Made by a program: the position numbers and the translations under genes
The notes under the pieces: model-generated
What the model was told of the DNA's origin: nothing
What the model saw: only the letters and a program-made list of their open reading frames with translations
Database searches by the model: none
In this document: positions 3,865 through 20,000 of the stretch, piece after piece
How the letters are laid out: each line of letters opens with the position of its first letter
Numbering within the stretch: the stretch's first letter is position 1
DNA from: a virus
Lineage: Duplodnaviria > Caudoviricetes
DNA length: 50,389 bases
Reading direction: 5' to 3' (one strand)
Virus record (IMG/VR): IMGVR_UViG_3300044878_000071
Span: 1 to 50,389 of that record

Positions 3865-3913
3865 GTTTCTCTACCTCGATTAGATGCCCCGGCGTCTGCC
3901 AGGGCTTGAATGG

Positions 3914-5566: not shown

Positions 5567-6381
5567 GCTGCGTCTCCGTCGAGGGCTTTCAGGTTGGTGA
5601 TCTGTTCTTTTTGCGCATCGGTCAGCGTGTATTTGCTGCAGATGGTCGCGATCAGGTGTTCGGGGCTGGTGCGGTTGGCGTCAATCAGCGGCTGCCACTT
5701 GACGAGGTTTTCTTTGAGCACGTCGTCCGGGTAGGTCGGTAGCGCTTCGGGCGCTGGCTCGGGCTGCTGTTGCTGCGGGCTGACGTCGCGAGCCACTTCC
5801 TCGAACGACTTGCCTTCCATTTCGTCAGCGGTGGGGGCCGACCCGACCTCGGGGAAGGCTTTACGCAGGGCCTGGGCCTCGGCGCACTTGGCGAGCTGGG
5901 CGAAGGCGCGGCGCTTCCACATGGCGTTCGGCGCGATGCTGTCCTTGCTCGACGTCGCGTAGTTTTCAAGCCAGCGCTCATTGGCGGTGAACTCGGCCAC
6001 CAGCCCGTTTGCCATCTGGCGCTTGACCGTGACCCGGCACCATTCCGGATAGGTGACTTCAACCCCGGCCATGGTGGCGGTGATCGACGGGCCGTATTCA
6101 GGGTCGCTGATGCCGGCGTATTGCCCGGTGCGTGCTGCCTGGATGCGGTACAAGCCAATCCCAGGCATGACCACGTCGACCATGCCGCGGCCTTTCTGGT
6201 AGATCGGAACGATGTGCACCGGCTTCAGCATCGGGTCCAGGTGCGCGGCCTGGCAGTAGGCCAAGACCATGACGACCGAGTTATGCGCGGCGCCCGGGTA
6301 TAGGCTGCCGCTCAAGACCTCGACAAGTGCTTGCTCCGACATGGCCGGCGCATGGTCGGCCTGCTTCATTACTGCGCTCAT
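5563..6381 (-). CDS. bet: Phage recombination protein Bet (single-strand annealing)
   Basis: LDPMLKPVHIV...GIGLYRIQAARTGQYAG...MWKRR..QLAKCAEAQALRKAFP. Confidence 0.9.
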   Translation of the reverse strand: MSAVMKQADHAPAMSEQALVEVLSGSLYPGAAHNSVVMVLAYCQAAHLDPMLKPVHIVPIYQKGRGMVDVVMPGIGLYRIQAARTGQYAGISDPEYGPSITATMAGVEVTYPEWCRVTVKRQMANGLVAEFTANERWLENYATSSKDSIAPNAMWKRRAFAQLAKCAEAQALRKAFPEVGSAPTADEMEGKSFEEVARDVSPQQQQPEPAPEALPTYPDDVLKENLVKWQPLIDANRTSPEHLIATICSKYTLTDAQKEQITNLKALDGDAA

Positions 6382-6421
6382 GGTGATACCCCTTGGTCCT
6401 TTGGAAGAGACCCTGTGTGAG

Positions 6422-6541
6422 TTAAATCGGCGCGACCAAATCAGCCAGCGCGATGATTGTGAGAAGGAAAAGCCATGGCGATACGCCGATGAGCGACCCG
6501 GTCCAGATCAGCCGGCGGCGCCTTGATTGGCGGGCGGTCAT
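6422..6541 (-). CDS. Small membrane protein (39 aa)
   Basis: MTARQSRRRRLIWTGSLIGVSPWLFLLTIIALADLVAPI; ATGA overlap. Confidence 0.5.
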   Translation of the reverse strand: MTARQSRRRRLIWTGSLIGVSPWLFLLTIIALADLVAPI

Positions 6542-6774
6542 GCCTTCACCTCGTTGTACCCGAAGAAGTCTCCGATCTGCTCGACCGCCGCATTGATCCG
6601 CGCCTGGGCGGCCTTGCGTTCGGCCAGTCGGATCGCTTCCCGCTCAGCGCTCCGGGCGGCGCTCGCCTCGTAGTCGTGGAATAAGTCAGCCGAAGCCTGC
6701 TTTGGTCTGCCCCATGCGTCATACCGTCGATCCCATTCCCGGGCCTGGGCGCTATCTGCGTAGCTTGTTGACAT
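6538..6774 (-). CDS. Hypothetical phage protein
   Basis: AGGAGAGG RBS; in the operon. Confidence 0.65.
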   Translation of the reverse strand: MSTSYADSAQAREWDRRYDAWGRPKQASADLFHDYEASAARSAEREAIRLAERKAAQARINAAVEQIGDFFGYNEVKA

Positions 6775-6787
6775 GATTGCCTCCTAC

Positions 6788-6919
6788 TCAGGCGATGTAT
6801 CCGCCTGGCATGGTGGTCACTACGCGCTTTGCTACCGGCTCGTGCATCCGACCCTTGGCGCAGTCGTGCAGATCGGGGCGTGGTTGCTTTCGTACTGTCT
6901 TGCGTGGGTTTGCGTTCAT
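6788..6919 (-). CDS. Small hypothetical protein (43 aa)
   Basis: MNANPRKTVRKQPRPDLHDC...; ATGA overlap fills the gap. Confidence 0.5.
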   Translation of the reverse strand: MNANPRKTVRKQPRPDLHDCAKGRMHEPVAKRVVTTMPGGYIA

Positions 6920-7299
6920 GGCTCAGCCCTCAGTAGCTGGTCCCCAATGATGCGCAGGCGGTTGCGGATGCGGGCGCCTTGGGCGTTGATCTCTTTGCGC
7001 TCGTCGAGCAGCTTGGCCATCGATCGGTAGATGTTGTCGTCTTCGAGTTCCTGGCCATCCCATGCTTGGCAGGTATCGACCGCATGGAGCCAGCCGTGCC
7101 AAACGATGCTGCAGTCGGGGTCATCCGTTACTTCGCCGCTCATGTAGCGATTGCGGAAGGGCTTCAGGTCGACAAAGCCCAAGGTGTCACAGTCGCTGAT
7201 CACAGATTTGCGGGCCTTCTCGTTATCGCGAAGGGCCTTTCGGTGCTTCGAATAGGCCTTGGCCAGCTCGACAAGCTTTGCCTCTGCTGTCTGCGTCAT
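6916..7299 (-). CDS. Hypothetical phage protein
   Basis: Coupled ORF, 127 aa. Confidence 0.65.
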   Translation of the reverse strand: MTQTAEAKLVELAKAYSKHRKALRDNEKARKSVISDCDTLGFVDLKPFRNRYMSGEVTDDPDCSIVWHGWLHAVDTCQAWDGQELEDDNIYRSMAKLLDERKEINAQGARIRNRLRIIGDQLLRAEP

Positions 7300-7490
7300 G
7301 GCCGAGCTCTCACGGCAATCCTGTTGCCTTTCTGCGTGGCCGAGAGCTGCACCTTGAGGTCGCAGACCTTGAATTCTGGCGACTTGCCGATCACCTGATA
7401 GAACGGGATGCCGTGGGCGATGATGGCCAGGCCGCGCTCGATCTCTTCGAGCTGTTCGTCGATCAGCGATTTAACGATTGGCGTGGTCAT
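7296..7490 (-). CDS. Hypothetical phage protein
   Basis: MTTPIVKSLIDEQL; GAGG RBS; ATGA overlap. Confidence 0.65.
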   Translation of the reverse strand: MTTPIVKSLIDEQLEEIERGLAIIAHGIPFYQVIGKSPEFKVCDLKVQLSATQKGNRIAVRARP

Positions 7491-7729
7491 GCGTGCATCC
7501 TCTCGGCGGTTCCGCAAAGGCGGGACACTCGCAGGGCGCGAGCGGCGTTGATGTGGTCGTGCATCTGCCTCGACTCTTCGTGCTTTATGTCGCCCGAGAA
7601 AAGTGCGTAGGTGACCAGGCCGGCCAGGTAATTCAGTTCCGACTCGCTGCCAACCAGATCACCGGCGGGCATGGCGTGGATCTTTTTCAATCGTTCATCG
7701 AAAAGCACTCTTGCTGATGAGTTGAACAT
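7487..7729 (-). CDS. Hypothetical phage protein
   Basis: GAGGG RBS; first clearly coupled gene of the leftward operon. Confidence 0.65.
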   Translation of the reverse strand: MFNSSARVLFDERLKKIHAMPAGDLVGSESELNYLAGLVTYALFSGDIKHEESRQMHDHINAARALRVSRLCGTAERMHA

Positions 7730-7774
7730 TTGAGTTTCCCTCGGTGACGTGGAAGAGACCGCTAATTGCGTACT

Positions 7775-7969
7775 TTAAAGGCGGCTGTGATGGCGGAAAG
7801 TGCGGGCCGAGTTGCTGCCGTGCATGCGCTGCTGGGATTGGCGATACGTCCTGGCTCCCGGATATACAGCCGAGTCGCCCATCGCCTTGGTGACGAACAG
7901 GCCGCGAAGGCTCAGTGCGTCAAGTTCAATTTCGTCGCCCAACAGGGCTACACCCGTTTCATTTTTCAT
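7775..7969 (-). CDS. Possible small hypothetical protein
   Basis: AGGGG RBS then MKNETGVALLG. Confidence 0.4.
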   Translation of the reverse strand: MKNETGVALLGDEIELDALSLRGLFVTKAMGDSAVYPGARTYRQSQQRMHGSNSARTFRHHSRL

Positions 7970-8534
7970 GTTTGCACCCCTGCTTGCGTTGATTGGTTGG
8001 TTTCCCACTGCCGACTCATCGAATCGGCACTGGTGAAAGGGTCCAGGCCGCGCTACTGGCGACCGGCCTGGATTGCTGCGTCAAGTTGTCCGTGTGCTTT
8101 GGGTTGGCCTACCGGTACTCCGGCCGATCCGCGGTGAGATCGACGACCCGCTGTCCGCTGCCTGTCCGGTGTTGGGCGCAGCCTTCAGGCTTGCTGCGCC
8201 ACGCAGATGAATCGCCCTTGTTAGTCCATGATGCAATCTCCTATCGCTCGCTCACTGGGTCGGCAGTGGCCACCTGTTGAATCCTATTGAATCTTCAAAC
8301 TGTTCACCCCATTACCGCCTGGATGTGGCGGGGCGCATCGCTTGCCGGGTCATTCGCGCGGTTAAGGCTTTTGCCATCGATCAGCCGCAAAGGGTTTTCC
8401 CTTTCGTGGGCAGGCTTTCGGGCCTGTCTGATCGCCGGTCGCCGACAGAGGCGGTGCGGTCTATTGGTTGTTGCGCAGATTGTATAAAGAGCGAATCGTT
8501 CTGGTCTCTAGCAAGGGACCGTCTCGATGGATTG

Positions 8535-8563
8535 AAAGGTAACTCACGGTTGCGAACCTGTAA
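8535..8563 (-). promoter_or_regulatory. Leftward promoter pL with overlapping operator OL
   Basis: Minus strand TTTACA-17bp-TACCTT; spacer holds CGCAACCGTGAGTTACC (8538-8554). Confidence 0.7.
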
Positions 8564-8631
8564 AGTCCTTTCCATGAAATAATTTTTAAGTTGCAGGCCC
8601 CCTCAAAGGGACTAGACTTGACGTAATACCG

Positions 8632-8660
8632 TTGAAGACTCCGCAACCGTTAGTTACCAT
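8632..8660 (+). promoter_or_regulatory. Rightward promoter pR with overlapping operator OR
   Basis: TTGAAG-17bp-TACCAT; spacer holds CGCAACCGTTAGTTACC (8642-8658), 16/17 identical to OL; core palindrome GYAAC-N5-GTTRC. Confidence 0.7.
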
Positions 8661-8688
8661 GGGACATCAACCAGCGTGGGAGTCGTTC

Positions 8689-8892
8689 ATGCAAGGTGTT
8701 CCGCTAAAGCAGTTGGTTGCAGAGCTTGGCCCGGCCAAGGTTGGGAAAATGCTCGGCGTTAGCCACCAGGGAATAACGAAGGCGGTAGAGGCAGGACGGG
8801 AAATTCTCGTCACGATGCTACCGGACGGAAAGGCAAAAGGGACCGAGCTTAGCGACTTCCCGAAAGCAAAGAAGAAAGCAGCACCAGACTGA
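8689..8892 (+). CDS. cro: Cro-family repressor
   Basis: 67 aa; GPAKVGKMLGVSHQGITKAVEAGREILV..ELSDFP lambda-Cro-like alpha+beta pattern; first gene after pR. Confidence 0.85.
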   Translation: MQGVPLKQLVAELGPAKVGKMLGVSHQGITKAVEAGREILVTMLPDGKAKGTELSDFPKAKKKAAPD

Positions 8893-8918
8893 TAAACGTA
8901 AAACAAAGGGGCTTATAT

Positions 8919-9122
8919 ATGGTGTACGTACCAGAAGAACTGATGCACGAAAAACAGATAAAAGTCCGACTCGTAGAAAGCGAGTACAAAGAGTGGAAAG
9001 AAATGGCTCACGCGGAGGGACAGCTGCATTCCGTTATGGCTAGAATTGCCATGCGGGCCATCCTCGAAGAGTACCGCAGGACCGGACAGCTGCCTGAATT
9101 CATCGCCAAACAGCGCGCATAA
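8919..9122 (+). CDS. Ribbon-helix-helix-like regulator at the cII position
   Basis: KQIKVRL strand, ESEYKEWKEMAHAEG helix, HSVMARIAMRAIL helix. Confidence 0.65.
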   Translation: MVYVPEELMHEKQIKVRLVESEYKEWKEMAHAEGQLHSVMARIAMRAILEEYRRTGQLPEFIAKQRA

Positions 9123-9151
9123 CATTCACGAATTTTTATGGGGTGATCGCT

Positions 9152-9298
9152 TTGACCAGGGAAGAAATTGTAGATGTTGCCGGCGATGATTTCGCCGTCG
9201 TTGTAGTAGCCGCTGCAGTCCAGGGCCTGGCCAGGCTTTACCGGGTCGAGGCGGTTATGCCTTCAGTGCGTTCGATCAGCAAGGGAATGAATCCATGA
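9152..9298 (+). CDS. Small hypothetical protein (48 aa)
   Basis: TTG start after GGGGTG; MTREE start shared with next ORF; ATGA overlap. Confidence 0.4.
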   Translation: MTREEIVDVAGDDFAVVVVAAAVQGLARLYRVEAVMPSVRSISKGMNP

Positions 9299-9687
9299 CC
9301 AGGGAAGAGTATTTTCAGTGGACTGGCGCCGAACGCGCTGAAATCGAAGCAGCTGCAGCCTCCAGGAACATGACCGGCCAGGAGCTGGTCGAAATCCTGA
9401 TGGGTTGCAGCGCGGAGAAGCTTGCAGAGATCGGTCAGCAACAGGGCGCGCCGCGCAATGCGGTCGTCGCCCAGGTCAGCGGGAATGTCATTCAGGTCAA
9501 CTTCAGCGCCCGGGCGGCAGCTTCTTGGACTGGCCGGAAGGCATACCAGGATCCATCAAAGCGCCTCCAGTTCGCAAACCGCGTCAGCCTCATGCCCCTC
9601 ATAGTCCCTTCCACGTCACCAAATCCTACTTCCGACGGGGTCCCTTCCACGTCACCTGACACTGTTGTTCCATACAGTAGCCGTTAA
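9295..9687 (+). CDS. Hypothetical protein
   Basis: AAGGGA RBS; 3' end carries two regulatory repeats and a LexA-like box. Confidence 0.6.
   Translation: MTREEYFQWTGAERAEIEAAAASRNMTGQELVEILMGCSAEKLAEIGQQQGAPRNAVVAQVSGNVIQVNFSARAAASWTGRKAYQDPSKRLQFANRVSLMPLIVPSTSPNPTSDGVPSTSPDTVVPYSSR
9662..9677. promoter_or_regulatory. LexA (SOS) box-like site
   Basis: CTGT-TGTTCCAT-ACAG matches gammaproteobacterial CTGT-N8-ACAG. Confidence 0.55.
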
Positions 9688-9779
9688 CTTAACAGACCGT
9701 ACATTTGCGCGCCACGTTTTACGCGTCAATAAAACGTAGCGCGACATCATATAGACCATTTTCAATCAGGGGTTATTAA

Positions 9780-10190
9780 ATGACAGGTGGAATATCAATC
9801 GGGACGGTTGAGGTGAATTGCAGCGACCTGGTAGGCCCGGCTCTGGACTGGGCGGTCGCGAAGGTCGAGAACGTGTTTGTGCATATCGGCGATCCAGAGC
9901 TGGGCGATGAGCTTCGCGTCTTCTACATTCGCGGCAAATGCCTGCCGTCCGTTGTGAGGTTTTGCCCATCCACCGACTGGAGCCAGGGCGGCCCACTGAT
10001 CGAGACGCACCAGATCGAACTGGAGTGGGACGGCGTCGACGGCAAAGCCCTATGGTGGAAGGCCGCGCACCAGGACATCGTCCAATTTCAGATGGGTGAA
10101 ACCCCGCTTGTCGCCGCCTGCCGCGCCATCGTTTCCGCGCACCTGGGCGAGGTCGTGAGCGTGCCGGCTGAGCTGGTCGAAAATAAATAA
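9780..10190 (+). CDS. NinX/DUF2591-family protein
   Basis: LVGPALDWAVAKVE...PSTDWSQGGPLIE...GETPLVAACRAIV. Confidence 0.8.
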   Translation: MTGGISIGTVEVNCSDLVGPALDWAVAKVENVFVHIGDPELGDELRVFYIRGKCLPSVVRFCPSTDWSQGGPLIETHQIELEWDGVDGKALWWKAAHQDIVQFQMGETPLVAACRAIVSAHLGEVVSVPAELVENK

Positions 10191-10230
10191 GTGCTTAAAC
10201 ATTGCAATGCAGCGTTTAAGCACCTAGTAT
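10191..10230 (+). promoter_or_regulatory. Promoter with inverted-repeat operator upstream of the TrfB-like gene
   Basis: TTGCAA-17-TAGTAT overlapped by GTGCTTAAAC (10191-10200) and GTTTAAGCAC (10214-10223). Confidence 0.65.
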
Positions 10231-10252
10231 CAGCTCGACAAGGGGGTGACAT

Positions 10253-10456
10253 ATGAGACTTGAGCAATTCGAGGCGATCTCCGAGCTGATCAGGGCTCGA
10301 GGTGGCGTCAGTGAGGAATCGGCAAAGCTGGTTCTTGTTGAAGGGCTAACCGCCCGTCAGGCGGCCGACATGCTTGGCTGTCCGACTCAGACCGTGTACA
10401 GCGGCGTTCAGAGATTCACTAAGGCGCTTGAGTTGGCGAAAACAGCCGTCCAGTAG
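10253..10456 (+). CDS. TrfB/KorA-like HTH repressor
   Basis: EQFEAI...AKLVLVEGLTARQAADMLGCPTQTVYSGVQRF resembles the KorA/TrfB DNA-binding domain. Confidence 0.65.
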   Translation: MRLEQFEAISELIRARGGVSEESAKLVLVEGLTARQAADMLGCPTQTVYSGVQRFTKALELAKTAVQ

Positions 10457-10521
10457 CCTAGATTTTCGTTTCAAGGCGGTATACCGTGCAAACCAGTCTC
10501 TCTGAAGGGACCGGACCGCAC

Positions 10522-10553
10522 AAAAAAATGCCCCGGCGGATCAGGCCGGGGCA
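10522..10553 (-). terminator. Leftward intrinsic terminator
   Basis: TGCCCCGGC/GCCGGGGCA stem with A7 on its 5' side on the plus strand. Confidence 0.7.
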
Positions 10554-10582
10554 GATGGATCTATTACTCGCGAGGGAAGTAT

Positions 10583-11170
10583 ATGTCACTTTTAAAGGAA
10601 TGCGAACAGGCTTGTCTTGAGGCTGTCGGGGCGGATCGATTTGCGGTGCTTAAGGCTTCCGCAGAGCTATGGGTGAAGGATATCCAAGCCGATAATCGGG
10701 AGCCAATCCGATGCCTGGATATTCCTGAATTGGCAATTGCAATTCGCGCAGCCAGGATACATGGCGATAGCGCGTATGACGCGGCTCGAGAATACCTTGG
10801 CGCGGTAGCAGATCTGGTATTTCCACCGTCCCCAGCTCTGCCTTACAGCCCAGCCAAAGGAAAAAAATACGAAACGCCAAAGCGGCCAGGCTTCGTGTAT
10901 GTGTTAACCAACCCTTCGCTTGATGGGATGGTGAAGGTCGGAATGACAACCACCTCTGTCGAGCGACGAGCCAAGCAGCTATCTCAGTCGACCTCGATCC
11001 CAACTCAGTTCGAAATACATGCCAGCTTCGAAAGCGATGACCCCTCAGCTGATGGGCAGAAGGTTCACCTAGCTCTCCAGGATCACCGAGTACCTTCCAG
11101 TGAGTTCTTCATGGTGTCTGCCGCTAAGGCCGCTGAAATGTGCGCGCAGGTTATCGGGGGTGCTCAGTGA
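10583..11170 (+). CDS. T5orf172/MUG113-type GIY-YIG domain protein
   Basis: GFVYVLTN..MVKVGMT....RAKQL...H..L...EFF. Confidence 0.8.
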   Translation: MSLLKECEQACLEAVGADRFAVLKASAELWVKDIQADNREPIRCLDIPELAIAIRAARIHGDSAYDAAREYLGAVADLVFPPSPALPYSPAKGKKYETPKRPGFVYVLTNPSLDGMVKVGMTTTSVERRAKQLSQSTSIPTQFEIHASFESDDPSADGQKVHLALQDHRVPSSEFFMVSAAKAAEMCAQVIGGAQ

Positions 11171-11916
11171 GTGAAGACATCAAGCGTCAGTTTCAGGGCG
11201 TATGGATACCGGCTGCTCTCTGGCTTGATGAGAGCCTGCCGATCAACGAAAAGATCATGCTTGTTGAGCTGAATAGCCTCCAAGACCCGGAGCGTGGTTG
11301 CTACGCCAGCAATGCCCACTTCGCAAAGTTCTTTGGCTTGTCGAACTCGCGTATTTCCGAGCTGATCAGTTCACTAGCCAAAAAGGGCTTCGTGACTGTC
11401 GAGCTGATCCGGCAAGGAAAGCAAATTGTCGAGCGAAGAGTTCGGGTTGTTGACCTCTTCGGAAAATCGAATACCTATTCGGAAAAGGCTTTTAACCCTA
11501 TTCGGAAAACCGAAGAACCCCCTTCGGAAAAGGCGAAGGGAAGTAATACAACTAATAACAATACAAAAAGCAGTAAAAAACCTATGGCCGACAAGCCGGC
11601 CGAGGCGTTCGATTTGTTCTGGTCTGCCTACCCCAAAAAGAAGGCCAAGGGTGATGCCGAGAAGGCCTGGGCAAAGATCAAACCTGATCACACTCTTTCC
11701 GAACTGATCATCGCTGCGGTTCTGGCGCAGAAGCTGTCGGCGGACTGGACGAAGGATGGCGGCAAGTTCATCCCGCACCCGGCTACCTGGCTGAACGCCA
11801 AACGCTGGGAGGACGAGGTAACGCCCGCCACTGACCAACCGGCTGCGAAGCCGAAGTCGTCCGGGCCTGACTTCTTCGACGAATCCTGGCGAACCGATAC
11901 GAGTGACGACCTATGA
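11167..11916 (+). CDS. Replication initiator (lambda O-like, N-terminal winged HTH)
   Basis: GVWIP...CYASNAHFA; C-terminal FDLFWSAYPKK...IPHPATWLN..RWEDE; internal iterons. Confidence 0.85.
   Translation: MSEDIKRQFQGVWIPAALWLDESLPINEKIMLVELNSLQDPERGCYASNAHFAKFFGLSNSRISELISSLAKKGFVTVELIRQGKQIVERRVRVVDLFGKSNTYSEKAFNPIRKTEEPPSEKAKGSNTTNNNTKSSKKPMADKPAEAFDLFWSAYPKKKAKGDAEKAWAKIKPDHTLSELIIAAVLAQKLSADWTKDGGKFIPHPATWLNAKRWEDEVTPATDQPAAKPKSSGPDFFDESWRTDTSDDL
11454..11580 (+). repeat. Replication origin: four iterons plus AT-rich tract
   Basis: TTCGGAAAA at 11458, 11478, 11501 and 11523 followed by A-rich 11541-11580, inside the initiator gene as in lambda ori. Confidence 0.8.
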
Positions 11917-12647
11917 AAAACGTCACTCAGCTAATCCCGCCTGCTGCGCGTGCGCTGCGCGTCAGCCAGCCATTGCCCGTGGCTACTCAGCCGCTCGGCG
12001 TGGTGGACGACCAGACCGGCGTGATCGTCGAGAAGATTTTCCGCCAGTTGCAGGCGATCTTCCCGGCATGGAAACAGGCCTGGCCCGATGACAAGGCGCT
12101 GTCGTCTGCAAAGCGCAGCTGGACCAAAGGGTTCATGGATGCCGGTATCAACGACCTGGACCAGGTCCGCTACGGGGTCGAGGAATGCCGTCGCAGCGGG
12201 TCACCATTCGCCCCGAGCATCGGCCAGTTCATTGGCTGGTGCTCGCCCGGGCCAGCGAGCTTTGGCATGCCAGTCGTAGCGGACGCGTGGCTTGAAGCGC
12301 TGATGGGCACCTACAGCCATGAGGCGGTGCGACTTGCCGCCAATGCCACCGGACTGTTCGACCTTCGCGCCTCCAAGCAGGACAACAAGGGTCTGCGCGA
12401 GCGCTTTGATCGCAACTACGAGGTGATATTGCGCCGTGCTCAGGCTGGCCAGCCGCTGAACGGAGAAATCCTGGCCGGGATTGGTCACGACAGCAAAAAG
12501 CTGGAGACCGATCTGGCCAACGACTACGCCGAACAGCGTCACGCCCGAGTTCGAGAGGCGCAGGGCATACCAAAATCAGGAGCTGACGCGCGGGCGCAGC
12601 TGCTGGCGAAACTGAAGATCAAGCGCGACAACGGGGCGACAGCATGA
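11913..12647 (+). CDS. Replication protein P-like helicase loader
   Basis: IFRQLQAIFPAW...KRSWTKGF..GI...PFAPSIGQFIGWC; follows initiator. Confidence 0.85.
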   Translation: MKNVTQLIPPAARALRVSQPLPVATQPLGVVDDQTGVIVEKIFRQLQAIFPAWKQAWPDDKALSSAKRSWTKGFMDAGINDLDQVRYGVEECRRSGSPFAPSIGQFIGWCSPGPASFGMPVVADAWLEALMGTYSHEAVRLAANATGLFDLRASKQDNKGLRERFDRNYEVILRRAQAGQPLNGEILAGIGHDSKKLETDLANDYAEQRHARVREAQGIPKSGADARAQLLAKLKIKRDNGATA

Positions 12648-13186
12648 GCACGAAAAAGACGATAAAAGTGAAAACCGCCGACCTGGTTGGCCGGGAGCTG
12701 AATTGGGCCGTGACGAATGTCGTTGAGGGCGATTACGATTTTAAGACATATCATCCTTCCGTCGATTGGAGCCATGGCGGCCCCGTGATCGAGAGGCTGC
12801 TAAAAACCGGGCAGTGGGAGATCGTTCAAGGGGTCCGAGCTGGCGAGGTAATGGTTCAGAACTACAACGCGGAATGCCTGCCGGTGGACGGAGAAAGCTA
12901 CGACCAGCCGAGCATGTGCTTCTCATCCGATAGTCTGCTGATCGCTGTCTGCCGGGCAACCGTCGCTGCAAAATACGGCGACACCCTGCATGTTCCTGCC
13001 TACTGGAGCACAATTAATTTTCTCCACACCGTAAAGGGCGTGCAGGGAACAACCACCCAATTGGCCGAGCACTTCGGGGTGGTTCGACCAAAGATTGCAT
13101 TAGACCGAATCGCCCGAAGAGGATGGTCGGTTGAGCGTGCAGTCACCGAGCCGCCGAATGAGAAAATGGCGAGGCCCAAGCTATGA
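12644..13186 (+). CDS. Second NinX/DUF2591-like protein with C-terminal HTH-like extension
   Basis: LVGRELNWAV..YHPSVDWSHGGPVIE..LIAVCRA, then QLAEHFGV..RIARRGWSVERAVTEP. Confidence 0.7.
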   Translation: MSTKKTIKVKTADLVGRELNWAVTNVVEGDYDFKTYHPSVDWSHGGPVIERLLKTGQWEIVQGVRAGEVMVQNYNAECLPVDGESYDQPSMCFSSDSLLIAVCRATVAAKYGDTLHVPAYWSTINFLHTVKGVQGTTTQLAEHFGVVRPKIALDRIARRGWSVERAVTEPPNEKMARPKL

Positions 13187-13350
13187 CCGCTGCCCAGCGC
13201 GCCACCGTCAACCAGCTCGTCGCTGACGGCTTCAAGGTCGTCGAGACCTGTCGCGACATCATCCGGCTGACCAAAGGCGCAGATGCTCGCCTTGTTCGCC
13301 CTGACGGCAGCCAGAAGCGAGCCAATCATGCCGAGCACAAGCGCGCCTAG
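13183..13350 (+). CDS. Small hypothetical protein (55 aa)
   Basis: MTAAQRATVNQLVADGF...RLVRPDGSQKRA; ATGA overlap. Confidence 0.55.
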   Translation: MTAAQRATVNQLVADGFKVVETCRDIIRLTKGADARLVRPDGSQKRANHAEHKRA

Positions 13351-13450
13351 TCCCGTGTGGATAAGCAAGCGCGATGGTTGCTCGCAAAGCGGAATAGAGC
13401 CTGCCTGGCGCGATGTCAGGCAGGATCAACGGGATATAGGGGTATATGTG

Positions 13451-13921
13451 ATGAGTGATAATTCAAAGTTGAAACAATTTTGCGAGGCAGTCGAAAGCAC
13501 CTATGCGGACCTATGCCGACATGGTGGCGACGAATGCGCCGAGGCCTGGCACAAAGCAGAAACGGAGTTCGCTGACGCTGCGAGCCCGGAGGCAGTCCTG
13601 GGCCTGCTCGCGGAGATCGAGGAGTGGAAGGCAAAATACGCAGAATGTGCCGAGTTCATCGACGAGGCGACGATTGAGCATGTCGATATCGATGATCTGA
13701 GCAGGGAAGCCGAGTTTTACAAGCAAGTTCAGCGTGGCGCGGGCGAGTTGCCAGAAGGCTGGGAAATCCTGATCCGCATCGAGAGGGATGCAGGTAATGC
13801 TGAGCTGATCGATCCAGAAGGAAACGAGGTCGATTACCCGAGCAATCATGAGTGCTTGGCCGACTCAATTTCTGATGCTATCGACGAGGCGTTGAGTCTG
13901 GCAGGCGTGGCGACTAAGTGA
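13451..13921 (+). CDS. Ead/Ea22-like hypothetical protein
   Basis: AASPEAVLGLLAEIE motif; AGGGG RBS. Confidence 0.6.
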   Translation: MSDNSKLKQFCEAVESTYADLCRHGGDECAEAWHKAETEFADAASPEAVLGLLAEIEEWKAKYAECAEFIDEATIEHVDIDDLSREAEFYKQVQRGAGELPEGWEILIRIERDAGNAELIDPEGNEVDYPSNHECLADSISDAIDEALSLAGVATK

Positions 13922-13952
13922 GTACAGGGCGCACCGCGAGTATCATGCTCAC
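13918..13952 (+). repeat. 35-bp tripartite repeat, copy 1 (candidate parS/ParG operator)
   Basis: GTGAGT-N12-GCGAGT-N5-GCTCAC; aligns with copies at 15655 and 16684. Confidence 0.6.
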
Positions 13953-13966
13953 GGATAGCGCCTCGA

Positions 13967-14086
13967 TTGCGCGAAGTGGTTTCGCCCTGTATGCTGCGCC
14001 TACGTGAGTGCTCCCTGTGAGAAGTGGCCCCAGCTTTACTAACTGAGGCCGAAACGAAAAACCGCCAATCCTTAGGCGGTTTTTTA
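13967..14086 (+). ncRNA. Putative stand-alone small RNA (about 85 nt) with its promoter and terminator
   Basis: TTGCGC-17-TATGCT promoter (13967-13995), internal hairpin, terminator 14057-14085, no convincing ORF. Confidence 0.5.
14057..14085. terminator. Bidirectional intrinsic terminator
   Basis: AAAAACCGCC-loop-GGCGGTTTTTT between convergent units. Confidence 0.8.
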
Positions 14087-14096
14087 TGCTTGCGAT

Positions 14097-14513
14097 TCAG
14101 TCATCCCGGTCAACCAGGTAGTGAGCTTTGTGCCACTCATACTGCTTTTCCCGATCCTCTATCTCGCGGTAGTAGTCGGACGGCTCCCCGTCGTAGTCGG
14201 CTATTTTCATTTTGCGCAGCGCTTCCAGTTCGCGCAGGTTGCGAGCGGCCCACTGTCGTCGCTCCTGGATCATGTCCCGGCAGGTCGACATAAACACGGG
14301 GCAGCTTTCGGTGTATCGGTGATACCAGCGCGCCATCTGCAAGAAGGCCAGCAAATGCTCATCGTCAAAGTTGCTCAGGCTGTCGCCGCGGAATTGCCAT
14401 GTGCTGCCGTTGTACAGCGACAGTACGAACGACTGAAGACTCAGGGCGGATGAGTAGTCCGAGCCGATCAGTTTGCTGCGGTGAACTGCGAACGGGTTTT
14501 CAGTGGTGCTCAT
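14097..14513 (-). CDS. Hypothetical protein, last gene of the par operon
   Basis: AAAGGGG RBS; FVLSLYNG...LSNFD core. Confidence 0.7.
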   Translation of the reverse strand: MSTTENPFAVHRSKLIGSDYSSALSLQSFVLSLYNGSTWQFRGDSLSNFDDEHLLAFLQMARWYHRYTESCPVFMSTCRDMIQERRQWAARNLRELEALRKMKIADYDGEPSDYYREIEDREKQYEWHKAHYLVDRDD

Positions 14514-14552
14514 GGCGTGACCCCTTTCTGTTTTCGTTGGGCATAGAAGTCG

Positions 14553-14783
14553 TTATTCGCTGATCGGCAGGCTTTCGCGAACCTCTCCGTGGGTTTCGTT
14601 CAGCTCGGACATCAGCGCGTCGAATGTTGGGCGATCTACCAGCCCCTCCGTGCGCAGCGCTGCCAGCCAGCCCGAGGCGACGGCATACCGATAGACAAGG
14701 TCGCCCGGGTCGGTTGAATCATGAAGCTGATCGATTTTCTTTCGTGCCGTCGCCACTGTTTGGGGCTTGTTCTGCTCGATCAT
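14553..14783 (-). CDS. Hypothetical protein in the par operon
   Basis: AAAGGAG RBS, 76 aa. Confidence 0.65.
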   Translation of the reverse strand: MIEQNKPQTVATARKKIDQLHDSTDPGDLVYRYAVASGWLAALRTEGLVDRPTFDALMSELNETHGEVRESLPISE

Positions 14784-14826
14784 GCGATGGCTCCTTTCTG
14801 ACTTGTGAGTACGGTGATGCCGGTAA

Positions 14827-15045
14827 TCACCGTGAGTTTTTGGTGAGATACTCGTCGATAAACCGCTCGATCTCCGTCGTCATGTCCGACTCGTTGCGCA
14901 TGCAGGCCCGGCGGAACTTGTCGTGTTTCTCCGCATCGATGCGAACGTTCAGGCGCTTTTCCTCTGCGACTGGCTTGCTGGCCTGGGCCAGGATCTTCGG
15001 CGCCCTGTCGGCGACCTTGCTGGGTGCTGTGGTGAGTAGTGCCAT
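14827..15045 (-). CDS. parG: ParG-like ribbon-helix-helix centromere-binding protein (type Ib)
   Basis: 72 aa; flexible N-tail with Arg, then KRLNVRIDAEKHDKFRRACMRNESDMTTEIERFIDEYL; 2 bp downstream of parA. Confidence 0.85.
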   Translation of the reverse strand: MALLTTAPSKVADRAPKILAQASKPVAEEKRLNVRIDAEKHDKFRRACMRNESDMTTEIERFIDEYLTKNSR

Positions 15046-15047
15046 GA

Positions 15048-15656
15048 TCAGGCCTCCAATAGTTTCTTGACGGCTTCAGCGAAGCGTAGCGACTCCAGGC
15101 GTATCTGGCTGTCGCCGCTTCTCGTTGGGGTTCTCCCTCTGGCGATGGCTGTCGGGTATCCGATCCGGTCGCACAGGGGCACGCTGAGAACCGGCAGGCC
15201 GTAGCCGTTCAGGGCCTCGGCGATGTCCCGACCCAGCAGCGTGTTCTGGTCCAGTCGATTGACGTACAGCGCGGCGATGAACGCTGGCCGGTGCGCCTGG
15301 TGGGCCTTCAGCAGTTCGATGGTGTCGGCTGACGACCAGATGTCGAACAGGCTCGGCGGGCATGGCAGCAGCGCCAGATCGAGCGCCGGCAGTGCATCGG
15401 CAGACAGTTCGCCCTTCGTATCAATCACCGCATAGTCAAATCCCTTGAGCCGTTTTAGGTCGGCAATGCTGTCGGCGCTGAATATCTCCAGGGTTGTCGG
15501 TAGGTTCGCCATTCCGCTCCAGCGCTCCAGGCTGCCTTGCGGATCAAGATCGACCAGCGCGACCCGGTGCTTCTGTGCCAATGCCCCGGCCAGGACGACA
15601 CAGCTTGTCGACTTGCCGACCCCGCCTTTCTGGTTGATCAGCCCGATCTTCTTCAT
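15048..15656 (-). CDS. parA: Short ParA/ParF Walker-type partition ATPase
   Basis: NQKGGVGKST deviant Walker A, LVDLDPQGS, DYAVIDT; about 200 aa with no N-terminal HTH. Confidence 0.93.
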   Translation of the reverse strand: MKKIGLINQKGGVGKSTSCVVLAGALAQKHRVALVDLDPQGSLERWSGMANLPTTLEIFSADSIADLKRLKGFDYAVIDTKGELSADALPALDLALLPCPPSLFDIWSSADTIELLKAHQAHRPAFIAALYVNRLDQNTLLGRDIAEALNGYGLPVLSVPLCDRIGYPTAIARGRTPTRSGDSQIRLESLRFAEAVKKLLEA

Positions 15657-15689
15657 GAGTACAGTGCCCATCGTGAGTATTTGACTCAC
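15655..15689 (+). repeat. 35-bp tripartite repeat, copy 2, over the parA start/promoter
   Basis: ATGAGT-N12-GTGAGT-N5-ACTCAC. Confidence 0.65.
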
Positions 15690-15799
15690 AGGATATACGA
15701 ATGTGCGGAAATCGCTTTGCTTATTCGCGATCATCGCCTATAGTCCCTCTACAGTCCCTGCGTAGGGACCAGAAAATAAACTGATCAGGGGTGATCGAT

Positions 15800-16069
15800 A
15801 TGAGCGAAGAAACTGCAGTTTGCCGAGGGTGCCGATCCAAGCTGCGCGGCCAGCCGTACTACAAGGGCGGGAACGCCTACAGCCTGGAGACGGGCAAAGA
15901 GGCGAAGAAGTGCCATTACGGCGGATTCGTCTGTTCCAGGCAGTGCGATATCCGGGCTTGTGTCGAACTGGAAGGAACCATGCCCGGTTGCCGCACCGTC
16001 AATGCCTACGACCGGCTCAGCCCGTACGCCAAGGAACGAATCAAAAGCAATTGGCCCGAGGGGCAATGA
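15800..16069 (+). CDS. Cys-rich hypothetical protein
   Basis: CRGC..CS.QC motifs; AGGGG RBS. Confidence 0.65.
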   Translation: MSEETAVCRGCRSKLRGQPYYKGGNAYSLETGKEAKKCHYGGFVCSRQCDIRACVELEGTMPGCRTVNAYDRLSPYAKERIKSNWPEGQ

Positions 16070-16275
16070 TGAAGCTGGACCCAAGCAAGTTAAGCAGTGA
16101 CCCGGCACACATCAGGCAGCTGATCGCATCGTCCGGGATGACGCAGAAGGAAACGGCCGCGGCATTGGGTGTCGGTCACCGAACGATCGGCGACTGGCTC
16201 GGCGGCAAGATCAAGTGGTCCTACCCGGCGCAGTACGCGCTGGAGTGTCTGGTTCGATATGGGGTGAAGAAATGA
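16066..16275 (+). CDS. Small XRE-like HTH protein
   Basis: SGMTQKETAAALGVGHRTIGDWLGG..YPAQYALECL. Confidence 0.75.
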   Translation: MMKLDPSKLSSDPAHIRQLIASSGMTQKETAAALGVGHRTIGDWLGGKIKWSYPAQYALECLVRYGVKK

Positions 16276-18059
16276 GCGCTACAGAATGGAAGTTTGTACC
16301 GGTTGAGCCGACGCGAGAAATGCTGGTCGCGGCACTGAAGACCAACGGGGCCTGCCCGGTTTATGCCGCCATGCTCGACGCCGCACCGGTGCCGCCATCG
16401 GTTGAAAGCCTGCTGGAAAACTGGACGCCGAGCGATCAGCAAGCATTCGCCAAGTTCCTCGGCCAGCGCTTCCCGGGCGAAATGGACAGCTACGCCATCC
16501 AGTCGCTGGGTTCGGCCTGGAAGGATGGCCAAGCCAATGCGTCGACCGAAGTGCCGCAATACACCGGCACCGGCAGCGATTCCCTCGACTGCATCCTGGG
16601 CGTTGGCGGCTTTGCAAGTTTCGGCCCTCTGGATGCGCAACCCGCCGCCCACCTGACCATCCCCGGCGCGCTGGAGTGGGATGGTGATAATGGTACTCAC
16701 GGTGTTGTTGGTACTCACGGTGCGGGCGGTGAGTCAGGAGCTCCGGCAGTTTGCCCGCGTGAGGCGGTGCGTGACGCAATCGCTGAAGCTCTCGGCGATG
16801 CCTACGACTGCACTCGCGTTTGGTCTGCGTGGGGTGTCGGCACCATGAGCGAGGACGACTTCAGCCCGGTTTGCGATGACGAAAGCCGGCTCCAAGAGCT
16901 GACCGAGGCGGCAATTCAGGCATATGACGGCGCAGTGGTAGATCGCCTGCGTGCCCAGCTGGCCAACCATTCCGGCGACGCCAACGAAAAGGCCGCGCCC
17001 GTGGCTGGGCGCCAAGACATTCAAAATTGGTCTATTGATCATTCTGCCGGCCGCCCCATCCTGACCTTGAAAGGATGCAGCGTGATTGAGGCGGAAGACG
17101 CTGACTATGTCCTCTCCCTTGTCCTTCGGGATCAAAACCCGCCCGCGCCGGTATCGACATACACCGCTGTCGACATGACAACCGCTGCGGCTGGCGGTTT
17201 CCGTGATGGGCAAAATGCGGCGACCGACTCCCTGAAGGCCTTTGCCAACGAAATGATCAGCGCGGCCTTCGAGGGCGGCAGTTTCGACGGTGGCGACATC
17301 CAAGACATCGCCGTCAAGCATGGCCTGTTGCAGGTCGAGCAGCGCACCGAGGAATGCGGCGAAGTCTGCGCCTGCCGTGAATACGGGTTCCCTGCTGAGT
17401 GCTACCGCAAGACCGATCTGCTCAAGCCTGCCGATGAGCCATCCGCCCCCGCCGAATGCGAAGCCTGCGGCGACTGGGGGCACATCGAAACCGAAGACAG
17501 CGCCCATGACTGCCCTGAGTGCGGGCCGAGCGTGATCGAGCGCGCTGTCGAGGCTGGGGTGATGAATGCGCCGAAGCCATACGTGGCCATGACCGAGGCA
17601 GAGGCTGACGAATTCCTGTCGTCGTTCGGCGGAGGCAGCGGCAACAAGGCGAAGCGCCGGATCGCGGAAATCGAAAAGGCGAAGGCCGAAGCCTCGGTGA
17701 GCGGCTGCAACTATTCCGTTGGTGACTGGGATTGCCGCGAAGGCGGTTATCTGTATGACGCTGGCAGCGGTGAAGGCTGGGACCCAGAGGATTCGACCTA
17801 TATCTGCCCGCAGTGCCGGACCGCCGATTACCTGGAGGCCGCCAAGGACGAAGCCGAGTCTTGCAGCAGCTATTCCAACAACGGCAGCAGCGGCACGGGC
17901 CTGACCATCTGGACTACGGCCGAGGCAGAGGCATTGGCAGCCAATCGCCCCGAAGCGCTGAAGGCTCTGGCCGCACTTGGCCCGGTCGCCGCGCTGGAAG
18001 CCGACGACAGCCCAGAAGGGTATTCCACAGTTCTCTGCAACGTGCAGGTGGCGCCATGA
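16272..18059 (+). CDS. Large mosaic acidic hypothetical protein with several CxxC motifs
   Basis: 595 aa; WKFVPVEPTREML start; several short modules. Confidence 0.7.
   Translation: MSATEWKFVPVEPTREMLVAALKTNGACPVYAAMLDAAPVPPSVESLLENWTPSDQQAFAKFLGQRFPGEMDSYAIQSLGSAWKDGQANASTEVPQYTGTGSDSLDCILGVGGFASFGPLDAQPAAHLTIPGALEWDGDNGTHGVVGTHGAGGESGAPAVCPREAVRDAIAEALGDAYDCTRVWSAWGVGTMSEDDFSPVCDDESRLQELTEAAIQAYDGAVVDRLRAQLANHSGDANEKAAPVAGRQDIQNWSIDHSAGRPILTLKGCSVIEAEDADYVLSLVLRDQNPPAPVSTYTAVDMTTAAAGGFRDGQNAATDSLKAFANEMISAAFEGGSFDGGDIQDIAVKHGLLQVEQRTEECGEVCACREYGFPAECYRKTDLLKPADEPSAPAECEACGDWGHIETEDSAHDCPECGPSVIERAVEAGVMNAPKPYVAMTEAEADEFLSSFGGGSGNKAKRRIAEIEKAKAEASVSGCNYSVGDWDCREGGYLYDAGSGEGWDPEDSTYICPQCRTADYLEAAKDEAESCSSYSNNGSSGTGLTIWTTAEAEALAANRPEALKALAALGPVAALEADDSPEGYSTVLCNVQVAP
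16684..16718 (-). repeat. 35-bp tripartite repeat, copy 3 (inverted, inside a CDS)
   Basis: Minus strand GTGAGT-N12-GTGAGT-N5-TATCAC. Confidence 0.55.
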
Positions 18060-18163
18060 TCATTCTCTCTATCTGGCTGGCAATCCAGCTCCCGCTTGGC
18101 CACCTGATCGGCAAGGCTCAGCGCCAAAAGCGCAAGTTTGACGAGGCGTTCAGGCATGGCTAG
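18056..18163 (+). CDS. Small membrane peptide
   Basis: MIILSIWLAIQLPLGHLIGK; ATGA overlap. Confidence 0.45.
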   Translation: MIILSIWLAIQLPLGHLIGKAQRQKRKFDEAFRHG

Positions 18164-18683
18164 CGCTCCGAAGTCAGCGCCAAAGCCAAAGCCGATGCCG
18201 GTCTACCTGCTGCTGCGCCGCCTTGTTGATCCGGCCACTGGCAAGGAGATCGCCGCGTTCGTGCCGGCCTCCGATGCCGACAAGTCGATCCTGGGCGAGA
18301 AGGGCTACCGGTGGAACGCCAAGGTGCGGGCCGACCTGAAACAGCCGCGCAATGAGCGGTTCAACAAGTTGGTCCACGGCCTGGGCAAGATCCTGGCGCA
18401 GAACATCGACCGATTCAGCGGCAAGCAATCCCACGCAGCCATCAAGGCGCTGCAAACCGAGTCGGGAATCTACTGCGAGGAAGACCTGCTAGAGGTGCCC
18501 GGCATCGGCTCGCTGATCATCAAGCGCCCGCAGAGCCTGTCCTACGACTCGATGGGCGAGGAAGTGTTCCAGGACTTCTGGGCGAAGGTCTGCGGCTACC
18601 TGGTGCTGAAGGACTGGCCGACGCTCACAGAGGAAAGGCTTACGGAAATGGCGGAATTTGAAGGGTTTAGGGAGGCGGTGTGA
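18156..18683 (+). CDS. Nin-region protein (NinB/DUF1367-like)
   Basis: QPRNERFNKLVH...PQSLSYDSMGEEVFQDFW. Confidence 0.65.
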   Translation: MASAPKSAPKPKPMPVYLLLRRLVDPATGKEIAAFVPASDADKSILGEKGYRWNAKVRADLKQPRNERFNKLVHGLGKILAQNIDRFSGKQSHAAIKALQTESGIYCEEDLLEVPGIGSLIIKRPQSLSYDSMGEEVFQDFWAKVCGYLVLKDWPTLTEERLTEMAEFEGFREAV

Positions 18684-19012
18684 GCGAGATTGATTGGTAT
18701 GTCTATTGGGTGATTCTGTGCGGGATCGTGCTGAATGCGTGGCTGGCCCTGAAGCTGGGGCGTGTAGCTGGCCACCTGATCTATGCCGCAATCGCGGCCT
18801 GTTCGTTCACTCGATTCGCCTGGGCTTGCGGTCGTGAGCATGGGTTTCGCCCGATGCCGTGCCCGCGCTGGCTGTATGCGCCCGCTGTCTGGTTCGACAT
18901 TTTCGTCGCCCTATCCGGCGGGACGAAGGGGTCGGTCACGCACATGGGCGGTGCTGGCGTGTGGAGAGGCATCGGAAACTGGACGGTATTCCCTCGCAAG
19001 GAGGCGGCATGA
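18680..19012 (+). CDS. Putative membrane protein
   Basis: Hydrophobic N-terminus; coupled on both sides. Confidence 0.55.
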   Translation: MSEIDWYVYWVILCGIVLNAWLALKLGRVAGHLIYAAIAACSFTRFAWACGREHGFRPMPCPRWLYAPAVWFDIFVALSGGTKGSVTHMGGAGVWRGIGNWTVFPRKEAA

Positions 19013-19215
19013 ACACTCTCAGATGCGAGTGTCATCGATGCATCGACGAGCACAAGATTGGCGTTACAGGCCCATTCGGATGGATGCCACTGTCCTCGAC
19101 GAAAATGATCCTTTGCCCGATTTGCGGCTGCAAGCGATGCCCTCGGGCAAGCGATCACGATCTCGCCTGCACCGACAGCAATGAGCCTGGCCAACCGGGG
19201 AGCGTGTACCAATGA
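19009..19215 (+). CDS. Cys-rich small protein
   Basis: CECHRC...CPICGCKRCPRA; AAGGAGG RBS. Confidence 0.65.
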   Translation: MNTLRCECHRCIDEHKIGVTGPFGWMPLSSTKMILCPICGCKRCPRASDHDLACTDSNEPGQPGSVYQ

Positions 19216-19511
19216 GCAAACAGGACAAGATCACCAAGGCGGCCCGGGGCCGGGATTGCCAGGTTCGTTTGCCGGGCTGCCCGAACAACACCGAAACGAC
19301 CGTGCTCGCCCATTACCGGCTGGCGGGTACGTGCGGGATGGGTATCAAGCCCAACAACCTGCAGGCGGCGTTTTGCTGCGCCTGGTGTCACGACCGTATC
19401 GACGGCCGCGCCAAGTACGACATGCCCCGCGACGAGATCCGGCTGTACCACGCAGAGGGTGTTTTCCGCACTGTCGACATTCTGGTCGCTGAAGGCAAAG
19501 TGGCTGCATGA
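19212..19511 (+). CDS. DUF1364/YbcO-like putative nuclease
   Basis: AARGRDCQVRLPGC..ETTVLAHYRLAG.CGMGIKP..CHDRID. Confidence 0.85.
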   Translation: MSKQDKITKAARGRDCQVRLPGCPNNTETTVLAHYRLAGTCGMGIKPNNLQAAFCCAWCHDRIDGRAKYDMPRDEIRLYHAEGVFRTVDILVAEGKVAA

Positions 19512-19666
19512 TCCGCCGCCCATCCATGTTCCAGCAGCCAGCGCCATCGCCCTGGTACGTCAACAAAACCAAATGCACCGAGTGCGGCAAGTCTCGCGCC
19601 ACTGGCAGTCATGCGAAGTGCAGCCGGGCGCGGCAGATGCGGTTTTCGGGGGAGAACAAGGCATGA
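19508..19666 (+). CDS. Small Zn-ribbon protein
   Basis: CTECGKSR...H.KCS; coupled on both sides. Confidence 0.55.
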   Translation: MIRRPSMFQQPAPSPWYVNKTKCTECGKSRATGSHAKCSRARQMRFSGENKA

Positions 19667-19911: not shown

Positions 19912-20000
19912 TGTCATTTTGATTATTGCGGTCCCTCTGAGGGGACCGAATCGGTTATCATGACGCGCGTACGCGATATAAATTTCAGGGAGTGGATTGC

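Follow-up and report, generated by a model that had tools for sequence, protein, structure and literature searches.

The virus record IMGVR_UViG_3300044878_000071 is the near-complete genome of a temperate lambdoid siphovirus whose lineage lacks the CI repressor and carries a plasmid-type partition (par) cassette, a combination that holds for the whole lineage and is unusual. The stretch of DNA that was analysed, hereafter the window, is the entire IMG/VR record: a single contig of 50,389 bp, classed as 'linear', with a CheckV completeness of 99%. On balance we favour the view, which we put at roughly an even chance, that the prophage is kept as a plasmid for at least some of the time, with O/P replication autoregulated by Cro, segregation by ParA and ParG, and the integrase (Int) used for resolution or occasional integration.

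Since the record has no unseen part, whatever is missing from it must be learned from relatives. A search of viral contigs with ParA returned 23 related loci at 76–98% identity. The lineage set comprises the window and 11 larger relatives (12 genomes), together with 36 further fragments, of which 12 were chosen by lineage ParA and 24 by lineage integrase at 92% identity or above, making 48 records. Completeness is at least 89% in eight of the larger relatives, and five have terminal repeats, as circular-type assemblies do; no terminal repeat was found at the ends of the window. A near-identity search of positions 8500–16720 against phage and plasmid records gave no match. The nearest relatives of several genes suggest a Pseudomonas host, because ParG, Cro, the terminase (DNA 78% identical to phage Medea1) and Int (70% identical to phages MR13 and MR15) all have ties that point there.

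CI absence and the partition cassette

The CI repressor is truly absent, both beside cro and elsewhere in the genome. A Peptidase_S24 search of the whole record returned nothing at E ≤ 10, and the domain is likewise missing from the 11 relatives and the 36 fragments (0/1 window, 0/11 and 0/36). Nineteen CI-like queries produced nine weak matches, all with E ≥ 0.016 and none in the early gap, so that no remnant of the gene was recovered and the statement of an earlier, sequence-only reading that there is no cI anywhere in the window is upheld. The usual place of cI in lambdoid phages is here a gap free of open reading frames (ORFs) at positions 7970–8688, which contains the early control region. 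This gap measures 377–873 bp in 13 aligned genomes and holds no conserved ORF; the blocks common to all are 7972–8038 and about 8476–8688. One of the two hallmarks of a lambdoid immunity region, a CI protein with helix-turn-helix (HTH) and S24 domains divergent from cro, is therefore lacking.

The sole HTH_3 match in the window, a 68-residue protein encoded at 16072–16275, was considered as CI and rejected, its best solved relative being Aca1 (7c0g, E 3.5e-5). Its gene follows one for a Cys-rich protein of 92 residues, the two spanning 15791–16275 on the plus strand, divergent from parA. The HTH gene occurs at 22 of 23 loci and the preceding gene at 2 of 23, and the pair is a candidate anti-CRISPR operon, with a variable small gene ahead of a conserved Aca1-like one.

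The par operon (14097–15656, minus strand) consists of parA, parG and two variable small genes (14553–14783 and 14097–14513). ParA (15048–15656, minus) matches CbiA, VirC1 and phrog_164, has 202 residues counted from Met27 and contains the Walker A motif KGGVGKST; its solved relatives are ParF (4dzz, 1.4e-17 over residues 1–186) and ParA (5u1g, about 1e-17). ParG (14827–15045, minus; PF09274, 35.3 bits against a cut-off of 21.4) is a protein of 72 residues whose gene begins 3 bp after parA, and its solved relative is ParG 1p94 (E 2.2e-6). Two diagnostic features of type Ib systems are present, namely a small ParA with a deviant Walker A motif and no N-terminal DNA-binding domain, and a ribbon-helix-helix (RHH) protein encoded directly after it. 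The par operator (15738–15771) comprises two direct heptads and one inverted heptad of the form (A/G)GTCCCT at 11-bp spacing and overlaps the -10 element of the par promoter; the same arrangement stands upstream of parA in most of 22 relatives' loci, and locus L020 has the inverted pair only.

At its far end the operon meets an inverted repeat, AAAAACCGCC-N8-GGCGGTTTTT (14057–14084), which has runs of A and T and by eye looks like a terminator working in both directions, although a terminator scan did not list it. Lying where the rightward early operon and the par operon converge, the repeat is common to both. With its own leftward operon ending at this shared repeat, the par cassette thus forms a unit of its own that converges on the early genes. 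The closest plasmid ParG proteins, 53% identical, belong to plasmids of the Pseudomonas syringae group such as the conjugative pHelC. Judged by these family and structural matches, the cassette is a plasmid-derived type Ib system of the ParF/ParG kind with its own heptad operator, and the earlier identification of a type Ib parA–parG cassette with matching repeats is confirmed, the repeats lying within the promoter. The genome accordingly bears two marks of a phage-plasmid: a complete phage gene set, and the plasmid maintenance genes parA and parG.

To place these features in context, we compared the lineage by Fisher tests with an outgroup of 39 records that share the P helicase loader at 45–74% identity. 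A CI-sized S24 protein is encoded by 37 of the 39 outgroup records and by none of the 12 lineage genomes, whereas ParA is present in all 12 lineage genomes and in no outgroup record. Loss of cI and gain of par thus coincide among relatives, in the comparison that the sequence-only reading had proposed as a check, and sequence comparison supports them as one lineage-level event; the lineage is one clade, so that the whole contrast may represent a single evolutionary event.

Cro operators, heptad pairs and the replication module

The other hallmark of a lambdoid immunity region, a Cro protein with cognate operators at early promoters, is present as far as sequence can tell. Cro (8689–8892, plus; PF09048, 44.7 bits) has lambda Cro (1cop, E 4.9e-8) and Pfl 6 Cro (2pij) as solved relatives. 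Upstream of it, two 15-bp palindromes of the form GTAAC-N5-GTTGC (8539–8553 and 8643–8657, plus) flank a promoter-like site read by eye on the plus strand, the putative PR (-35 TTGCAG at 8591–8596, 16 nt, -10 TAGACT at 8613–8618), and are putative Cro operators. All nine relatives that share the window's Cro type keep both palindromes, whereas relatives with another type, in which Cro is 54–55% identical, have GTACC-N5-GGTAC at the same places (4/4). Since the operators change with the Cro type, two immunity types can be distinguished, each defined by Cro and its sites, and we infer that Cro is the protein that binds the two palindromes. No other protein credibly co-varies with the Cro type, in what is a weak screen with only two genomes of the second type; two ORFs that it flagged, one in the wrong frame and one encoding a small hydrophobic protein, were set aside.

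Early control had previously been ascribed to Cro, RHH proteins and possibly host LexA. Of these, Cro and an RHH protein are plausible, and LexA is unsupported: CTGT-N8-ACAG is not enriched in the window (two occurrences, 0.57 expected) and is absent from the early promoters. At the cII position stands a gene for an Arc-like RHH protein (8919–9122, plus; phrog_3431, E 9.3e-5), which is present in 13 relatives and has diverged to 45% in one of them.

A second motif appears to link the par operator to other control regions. The inverted heptad pair GGTCTCT-N4-AGGGACC has 14 matches at nine sites of the window against 0.32 expected, a number reached by none of 100 shuffles. The sites are 6395–6412 (minus), 8503–8520, 10495–10512, 15753–15770, 19930–19947, 23018–23035, 23096–23113, 40488–40505 and 44210–44227. 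Seven of the nine are intergenic, the intergenic share of the genome being 9.7%; nine genomes have six to nine sites each, and there are none in 502 kb of other phage loci. The site at 8503–8520 (GGTCTCT-AGCA-AGGGACC, plus) is separated from the left Cro operator by 18 bp and is kept in 14 of 14 aligned sequences, in one of which (L023) it has changed on both arms. Two further sites are found in the late-gene leader, between the Q-position gene and the holin gene, and in relatives G002 and G006, immediately past int, a heptad pair takes up the spacer of what by eye resembles a promoter.

We infer that ParG binds these sites. Its beta-strand sequence RLNVR is invariant in 22 of 22 relatives, while the ParG proteins of TP228 and pHelC have NVN and such heptads are absent upstream of parA in pHelC; one relative that retains the motif has a diverged Arc-like protein. 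It could follow that ParG is the maintenance repressor that took the place of CI, a centromere protein and global repressor acting at dispersed heptad pairs. This alternative, which we regard as improbable, would resemble omega of pSM19035, an RHH protein described as binding 7-bp direct or inverted repeats at several promoters, where its sites are also centromeres (PMC9499535, in the sections concerned with omega). The heptads of pSM19035 are, in that account, contiguous and number 7–10 per site, whereas the window has two or three heptads with 4-bp spacers, to which ParG would bind. The over-representation of the motif, its intergenic placement and its absence from other phage loci all accord with a repressor role, as do its presence in the par operator, in the post-int spacers, beside a Cro operator and in the late-gene leader, and the co-occurrence of RLNVR with the heptads; moreover, outside the early operons no DNA-binding protein other than ParG is encoded throughout the lineage. 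Yet most of the sites are off recognisable promoters, that at 8503 being about 70 bp upstream of the -35 element of the cro promoter, and another conserved regulator could bind them.

The structure of the motif also tells in part against a repressor. In each of the six sites that are clearly asymmetric, the arms stand in the order compatible with a T.G pair; the sense strand of the surrounding operon carries five of them, and the sixth (8503) is upstream of the cro promoter. Because this arm order and the sense-strand placement would allow it, a role as an RNA hairpin is possible, and the motif may be either a DNA operator or centromere, or an RNA hairpin. Separately, the sequence GTCCCTTCCACGTCACC occurs twice (9605–9621 and 9641–9657), 36 bp apart, at the 3' end of a 130-residue ORF, with half a heptad in each copy.

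None of the proteins scanned matched a plasmid Rep family; the replication genes belong to the O/P type known from phages. The O-like initiator (11140–11916, plus; phrog_270, 2.2e-48) is followed by a lambda P helicase loader (11913–12647, plus; PF06992, 3.5e-29; phrog_109, 4.6e-46), and four iterons at a spacing of 20–23 bp lie within the O gene (11453–11536). The lambda-O/P-type iteron origin recognised earlier is therefore borne out by both protein families and by the iterons.

The integrase, the tmRNA-like element and the state of the prophage

The window begins inside an integrase gene. Positions 3–74 (minus) are the opening 24 codons of a gene for an arm-type tyrosine integrase (MAAKRGVRAASKSSIEISFMVDGK), which the left contig end truncates. 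Compared with the integrases of four relatives, which have 388–389 residues, these 24 are identical in G004 and G006 and differ at one position in G002 and at two in G001. A full tyrosine integrase is present in all 11 larger relatives sharing ParA (open frames of 395–435 residues), and that of G002 has the domains Arm-DNA-bind_2 (PF12167, 71.8 bits), SAM-like and Phage_integrase (PF00589, 58.1 bits). Stop codons are absent, the median pairwise ratio of nonsynonymous to synonymous substitution (dN/dS) is 0.115 (11 sequences, 55 pairs), and the lineage integrase is under purifying selection.

The right end of the contig is also truncated. Only the C-terminal 27 codons of a small gene remain there (50306–50389, minus; translation read by eye), 84–86% identical by tblastx to a gene at 33868–34056 of G004. 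The stretch absent between the two contig ends is about 1.8–2.9 kb; by G004 it is approximately 2.9 kb, made up of the rest of int and some 1.8 kb of variable genes. Other lineage contigs likewise break within or beside int. Sequencing run X1 contains the window exactly (positions 1–20000 of the window were compared) as pieces with no differences, at a depth of about 150–235, alongside related variants that are several times deeper and differ by numerous indels and exchanged modules. Because other contigs break at int and run X1 is a swarm of variants, the break in the window is an assembly effect in a hypervariable island. Among the relatives, G003 (55,868 bp, 'linear') has a first 4.2 kb that repeats its last 3.3 kb at 92–97% identity; it exceeds one unit length and probably joins two strain variants in assembly.

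The sequence-only reading saw no integrase beside an att-like site and proposed that integration may have been swapped for partitioning. A domain search does find no Phage_integrase domain in the window, but with both contig ends cutting genes, the left one at codon 24 of int, and with the full gene in 11 of 11 relatives, the absence is an artefact of the contig end. The exchange of integration for partition is refuted therewith, since the integrase of the relatives is intact and selected, and a lambdoid phage-plasmid devoid of CI and integrase alike is scarcely credible.

That 'att-like site' had been reported within 8500–16720. None was found there; the sole candidate in the window is a stretch at 49013–49150 (minus) resembling the 3' part of transfer-messenger RNA (tmRNA) and a phage attachment site (attP), with the T-loop TTTAAAT and no acceptor end. 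This element of roughly 140 bp is conserved in four of four relatives, with sharp borders and variable gene cassettes around it, and lies 2.3–3.1 kb from int. It aligns with tmRNA 3' fragments that, in other contigs, directly follow integrases of 74% identity. These fragments are recognised as tmRNA by Rfam (E 3e-7 to 6e-5), and they and their integrases stand at or near the ends of long, prophage-sized records. The window's own element is missed by Rfam because its T-loop is altered and its acceptor end gone; searches of the whole window, the early gap (7970–8688) and the element gave nothing at threshold, and weak listings (snoRNA, H19 and others) are due to chance. ARAGORN found no tRNA in the window, and a tRNA-Ala call in L059, one among 48 loci, was rejected, lying within coding sequence with phage DNA on both sides.

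The same degenerate form recurs in 10 of 10 metagenome contigs found by pattern, none of which has a host junction, and all 13 copies seen are degenerate. In each of the 13, nonetheless, a 7-nt spacer is still flanked by a perfect 7-bp inverted repeat, so that the element may yet act as a recombination site. With the T-loop C and the acceptor end lost, a tmRNA gene could not be restored by it. Its plus-strand end forms a hairpin followed by seven T. The element may be an attP in decay, a recombination site or a small RNA. In L048–L079, the first 100 bp past the integrase stop contain interchangeable strong promoter-like sites (TTGC.., 17 nt, TATAGT), whose spacers are filled by different perfect palindromes (TTGGTGCACCAA, TAGGAACA.TGTTCCTA, GACATACAATGTATGTC) or by a heptad pair. 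A variable small gene follows each such site, some with HTH or RHH, and the whole resembles an island of self-regulated cassettes.

In the reading that we favour, the prophage would persist as a low-copy plasmid for at least part of the time. The O/P-iteron origin would be driven from a Cro-autoregulated promoter in the manner of lambda dv, Cro on the two flanking palindromes limiting the supply of O and P. ParA and ParG would segregate the copies, with ParG on the GGTCCCT heptads; the terminator and the convergent par operon would shield the late genes; and Int would resolve multimers or permit occasional integration via the degenerate tmRNA-like site. Phage-plasmids may retain recombinases for dimer resolution or for switching between states (PMC7969092, in its treatment of recombinases), and cells carrying lambda dv1 were found to contain little or no cI transcript (PMC3349717, in the part dealing with that plasmid).

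The chief alternative, possible and in our judgement the less probable of the two, is an ordinary integrating prophage that inserts at a tmRNA-like or other bacterial attachment site (attB) and is silenced by an unrecognised repressor, either a small protein or an RNA, with par as an accessory moron. On that account, and with the same reserve, par might stabilise the excised circle, exclude plasmids with the same par, or act in replication. An intact, selected Int in every larger relative is what such a phage would need, as is an attP-like element whose inverted repeat and spacer remain perfect. The related integrases that adjoin true tmRNA fragments near the ends of prophage-sized records accord with it too, as do genes of the lysogenic-conversion type (a WecG glycosyltransferase and a DNA methyltransferase). 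On the other hand, the element's lost T-loop C and acceptor end and the metagenome contigs without a host junction tell against it, and neither the domain scans of the window and relatives nor the search for CI remnants yielded a candidate repressor. The degenerate element and the IMG/VR provirus class speak for an extrachromosomal state, though indirectly, the class being assigned to 27 of 39 outgroup records and to none of the 48 lineage records, although 16 of these 27 proviruses come from other record-name series, and with like-named records only the comparison becomes 0/12 against 11/23.

That qualification is one of several points which weigh against plasmid maintenance. The outgroup has only the P module in common with the window. 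The lineage is known from environmental assemblies alone, whose 'linear' and 'terminal repeat' classes would also fit virion DNA. The strong conservation of the integrase and the intact retention of the attP-like element are to be expected of an integrating phage. A near search of PLSDB gave no match, so that no plasmid record was found, and a ParA scan of 185,579 species genomes returned one unrelated match of 41 residues, and no lysogen or host. In addition, nothing found explains how the lytic genes are silenced without a repressor; lambda cI mutants are virulent, and hence a repressor of an unrecognised family may exist. An organism-labelled run, X16, contains an 11.2-kb contig of a roughly 90% relative, and such contigs cannot separate an episome from an integrated copy. 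Relatives are also present in X2, a second run that bears an organism label.

A more elaborate form of the plasmid reading would have cI deleted, ParF/ParG acquired from Pseudomonas plasmids, and the phage turned into a natural lambda dv, in which ParG, on six to nine dispersed heptad pairs, is both centromere protein and global repressor in the manner of omega, and Int serves for multimer resolution at the degenerate tmRNA-derived site in place of insertion into the chromosome. This scenario seems to us improbable as a whole.

Other genes and relation to known systems

The remaining gene content is that of a lambdoid siphovirus. PHROG families were matched by nine of ten structural-region proteins queried, among them the large terminase (26184–27485), portal (27494–28909), major head (31546–32514), tail (34891–36051), tape measure (37343–40474), J-like tail-tip (41381–44449) and fibre (44973–47045) proteins. 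PHROG and Pfam scans also identified a Mu-F-like head protein. Together with the holin (23390–23821) and a Glyco_hydro_19 endolysin (46903–47703), these matches bear out the full siphovirus morphogenesis and lysis set described from the sequence. NinB, RusA and two NinX-like proteins are encoded as well. The product of 25081–25704 is named 'transposase' in PHROGs (phrog_513), a name that looks misleading, as Pfam has it as a putative phage metallopeptidase (PF18894, 1.8e-43). Downstream of int lie genes for a WecG/TagA-family glycosyltransferase (47762–48502, minus) and a DNA methyltransferase (49133–49630, minus), which are likely to be lysogenic-conversion or anti-restriction genes.

Leftward genes were called from Pfam, PHROGs and a gene list based on GC content at third codon positions. 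The leftward early operon (549–7969, minus) includes genes for HNH (1362–1736), SSB (3382–3864), YqaJ exonuclease (3914–5566) and RecT (5563–6381), all on the minus strand, besides small unknown genes. Its first gene, g64 (7775–7969, minus), is conserved in 12 relatives and has no family match; its best Atlas match scored 0.76, too low to use.

The rightward early operon also encodes a T5orf172 protein and a 67-residue HTH protein (10253–10456, plus; HTH_23, 25.3 bits against a cut-off of 24.6). The latter had been taken for a KorA/TrfB-like repressor, an assignment that could not be sustained: its Pfam matches are HTH_23, Sigma70_r4_2 and HTH_29 only, its best PDB matches are sigma-factor domains (E 0.25), and no KorA/TrfB family was found in Pfam, nor such a relative in the PDB. 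Beyond this gene, the segment 10519–10606 contains a leftward promoter-like site (10606–10578) and a strong terminator in the same direction, made up of a hairpin and a T run (10553–10529), which together would yield an RNA of roughly 50 nt, positioned like lambda oop.

Comparison with known systems brings out what is particular to the lineage. Lambda and lambda dv resemble it in having a lambda-family Cro, the autorepressor of lambda dv, and an O-type initiator with four internal iterons followed by P. They differ in that here a natural, complete phage is without cI, two operators flank the promoter where lambda has three overlapping ones, and there is, in addition, a partition system as well as an RHH gene in the place of cII. 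The ParF–ParG–parH system of TP228 likewise has a small Walker-A ParA, a 72-residue RHH ParG with a flexible N-terminal tail and repeats upstream of parA; its parH consists of ACTC tetramers. The window's cassette, in contrast, is in a phage, has GGTCCCT heptads at 11-bp spacing as well as dispersed pairs, and has NVR in ParG where TP228 has NVN.

Among phage-plasmids, P1 and N15 also combine a phage gene set with partition genes, and no sequence relation to the window was seen. Both have dedicated plasmid replicons and master repressors, and P1 resolves dimers with a tyrosine recombinase and has scattered operators. The mycobacteriophages of cluster A that carry parABS keep their immunity repressor. 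Phages of this cluster, such as RedRock, are described as temperate siphoviruses with an extrachromosomal prophage stabilised by parABS, which replaces the integration cassette (PMC7157519, in its account of these phages). The lineage of the window differs from them in keeping an integrase alongside par, in having no CI and in its type of par.

F116-like Pseudomonas phages (F116, phiC725A) have the nearest named Cro, at 43% identity. F116 differs in having a CI-like repressor beside cro, and its record places it in the genus Hollowayvirus; its virion type, too, differs from that of the window phage. F116 has been reported as extrachromosomal and phiC725A in both states, with no partition system detected in F116 in the part of that survey which treats these phages (PMC7969092). 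Our literature search found no description of a CI-less lambdoid phage-plasmid, although the published supplementary phage-plasmid lists (PMC7969092) may already include relatives.

For genome scans more generally, the integrase at the window's edge makes plain that missing-gene calls at contig ends need checking against relatives. Through the heptad-pair motif, a connection of partition with gene control can be put directly to the test. Lysogeny based on CI has its textbook example in temperate lambdoid phages, and here a well-sampled natural lineage, represented by 12 near-complete genomes and about 36 fragments, has Cro, O/P, an integrase and par without CI. Should the prophage indeed be maintained as we propose, the lambda dv circuit, known from the laboratory, would exist in nature as a lifestyle, and the lineage would be a test case for the transition from phage to phage-plasmid, or for the reverse.

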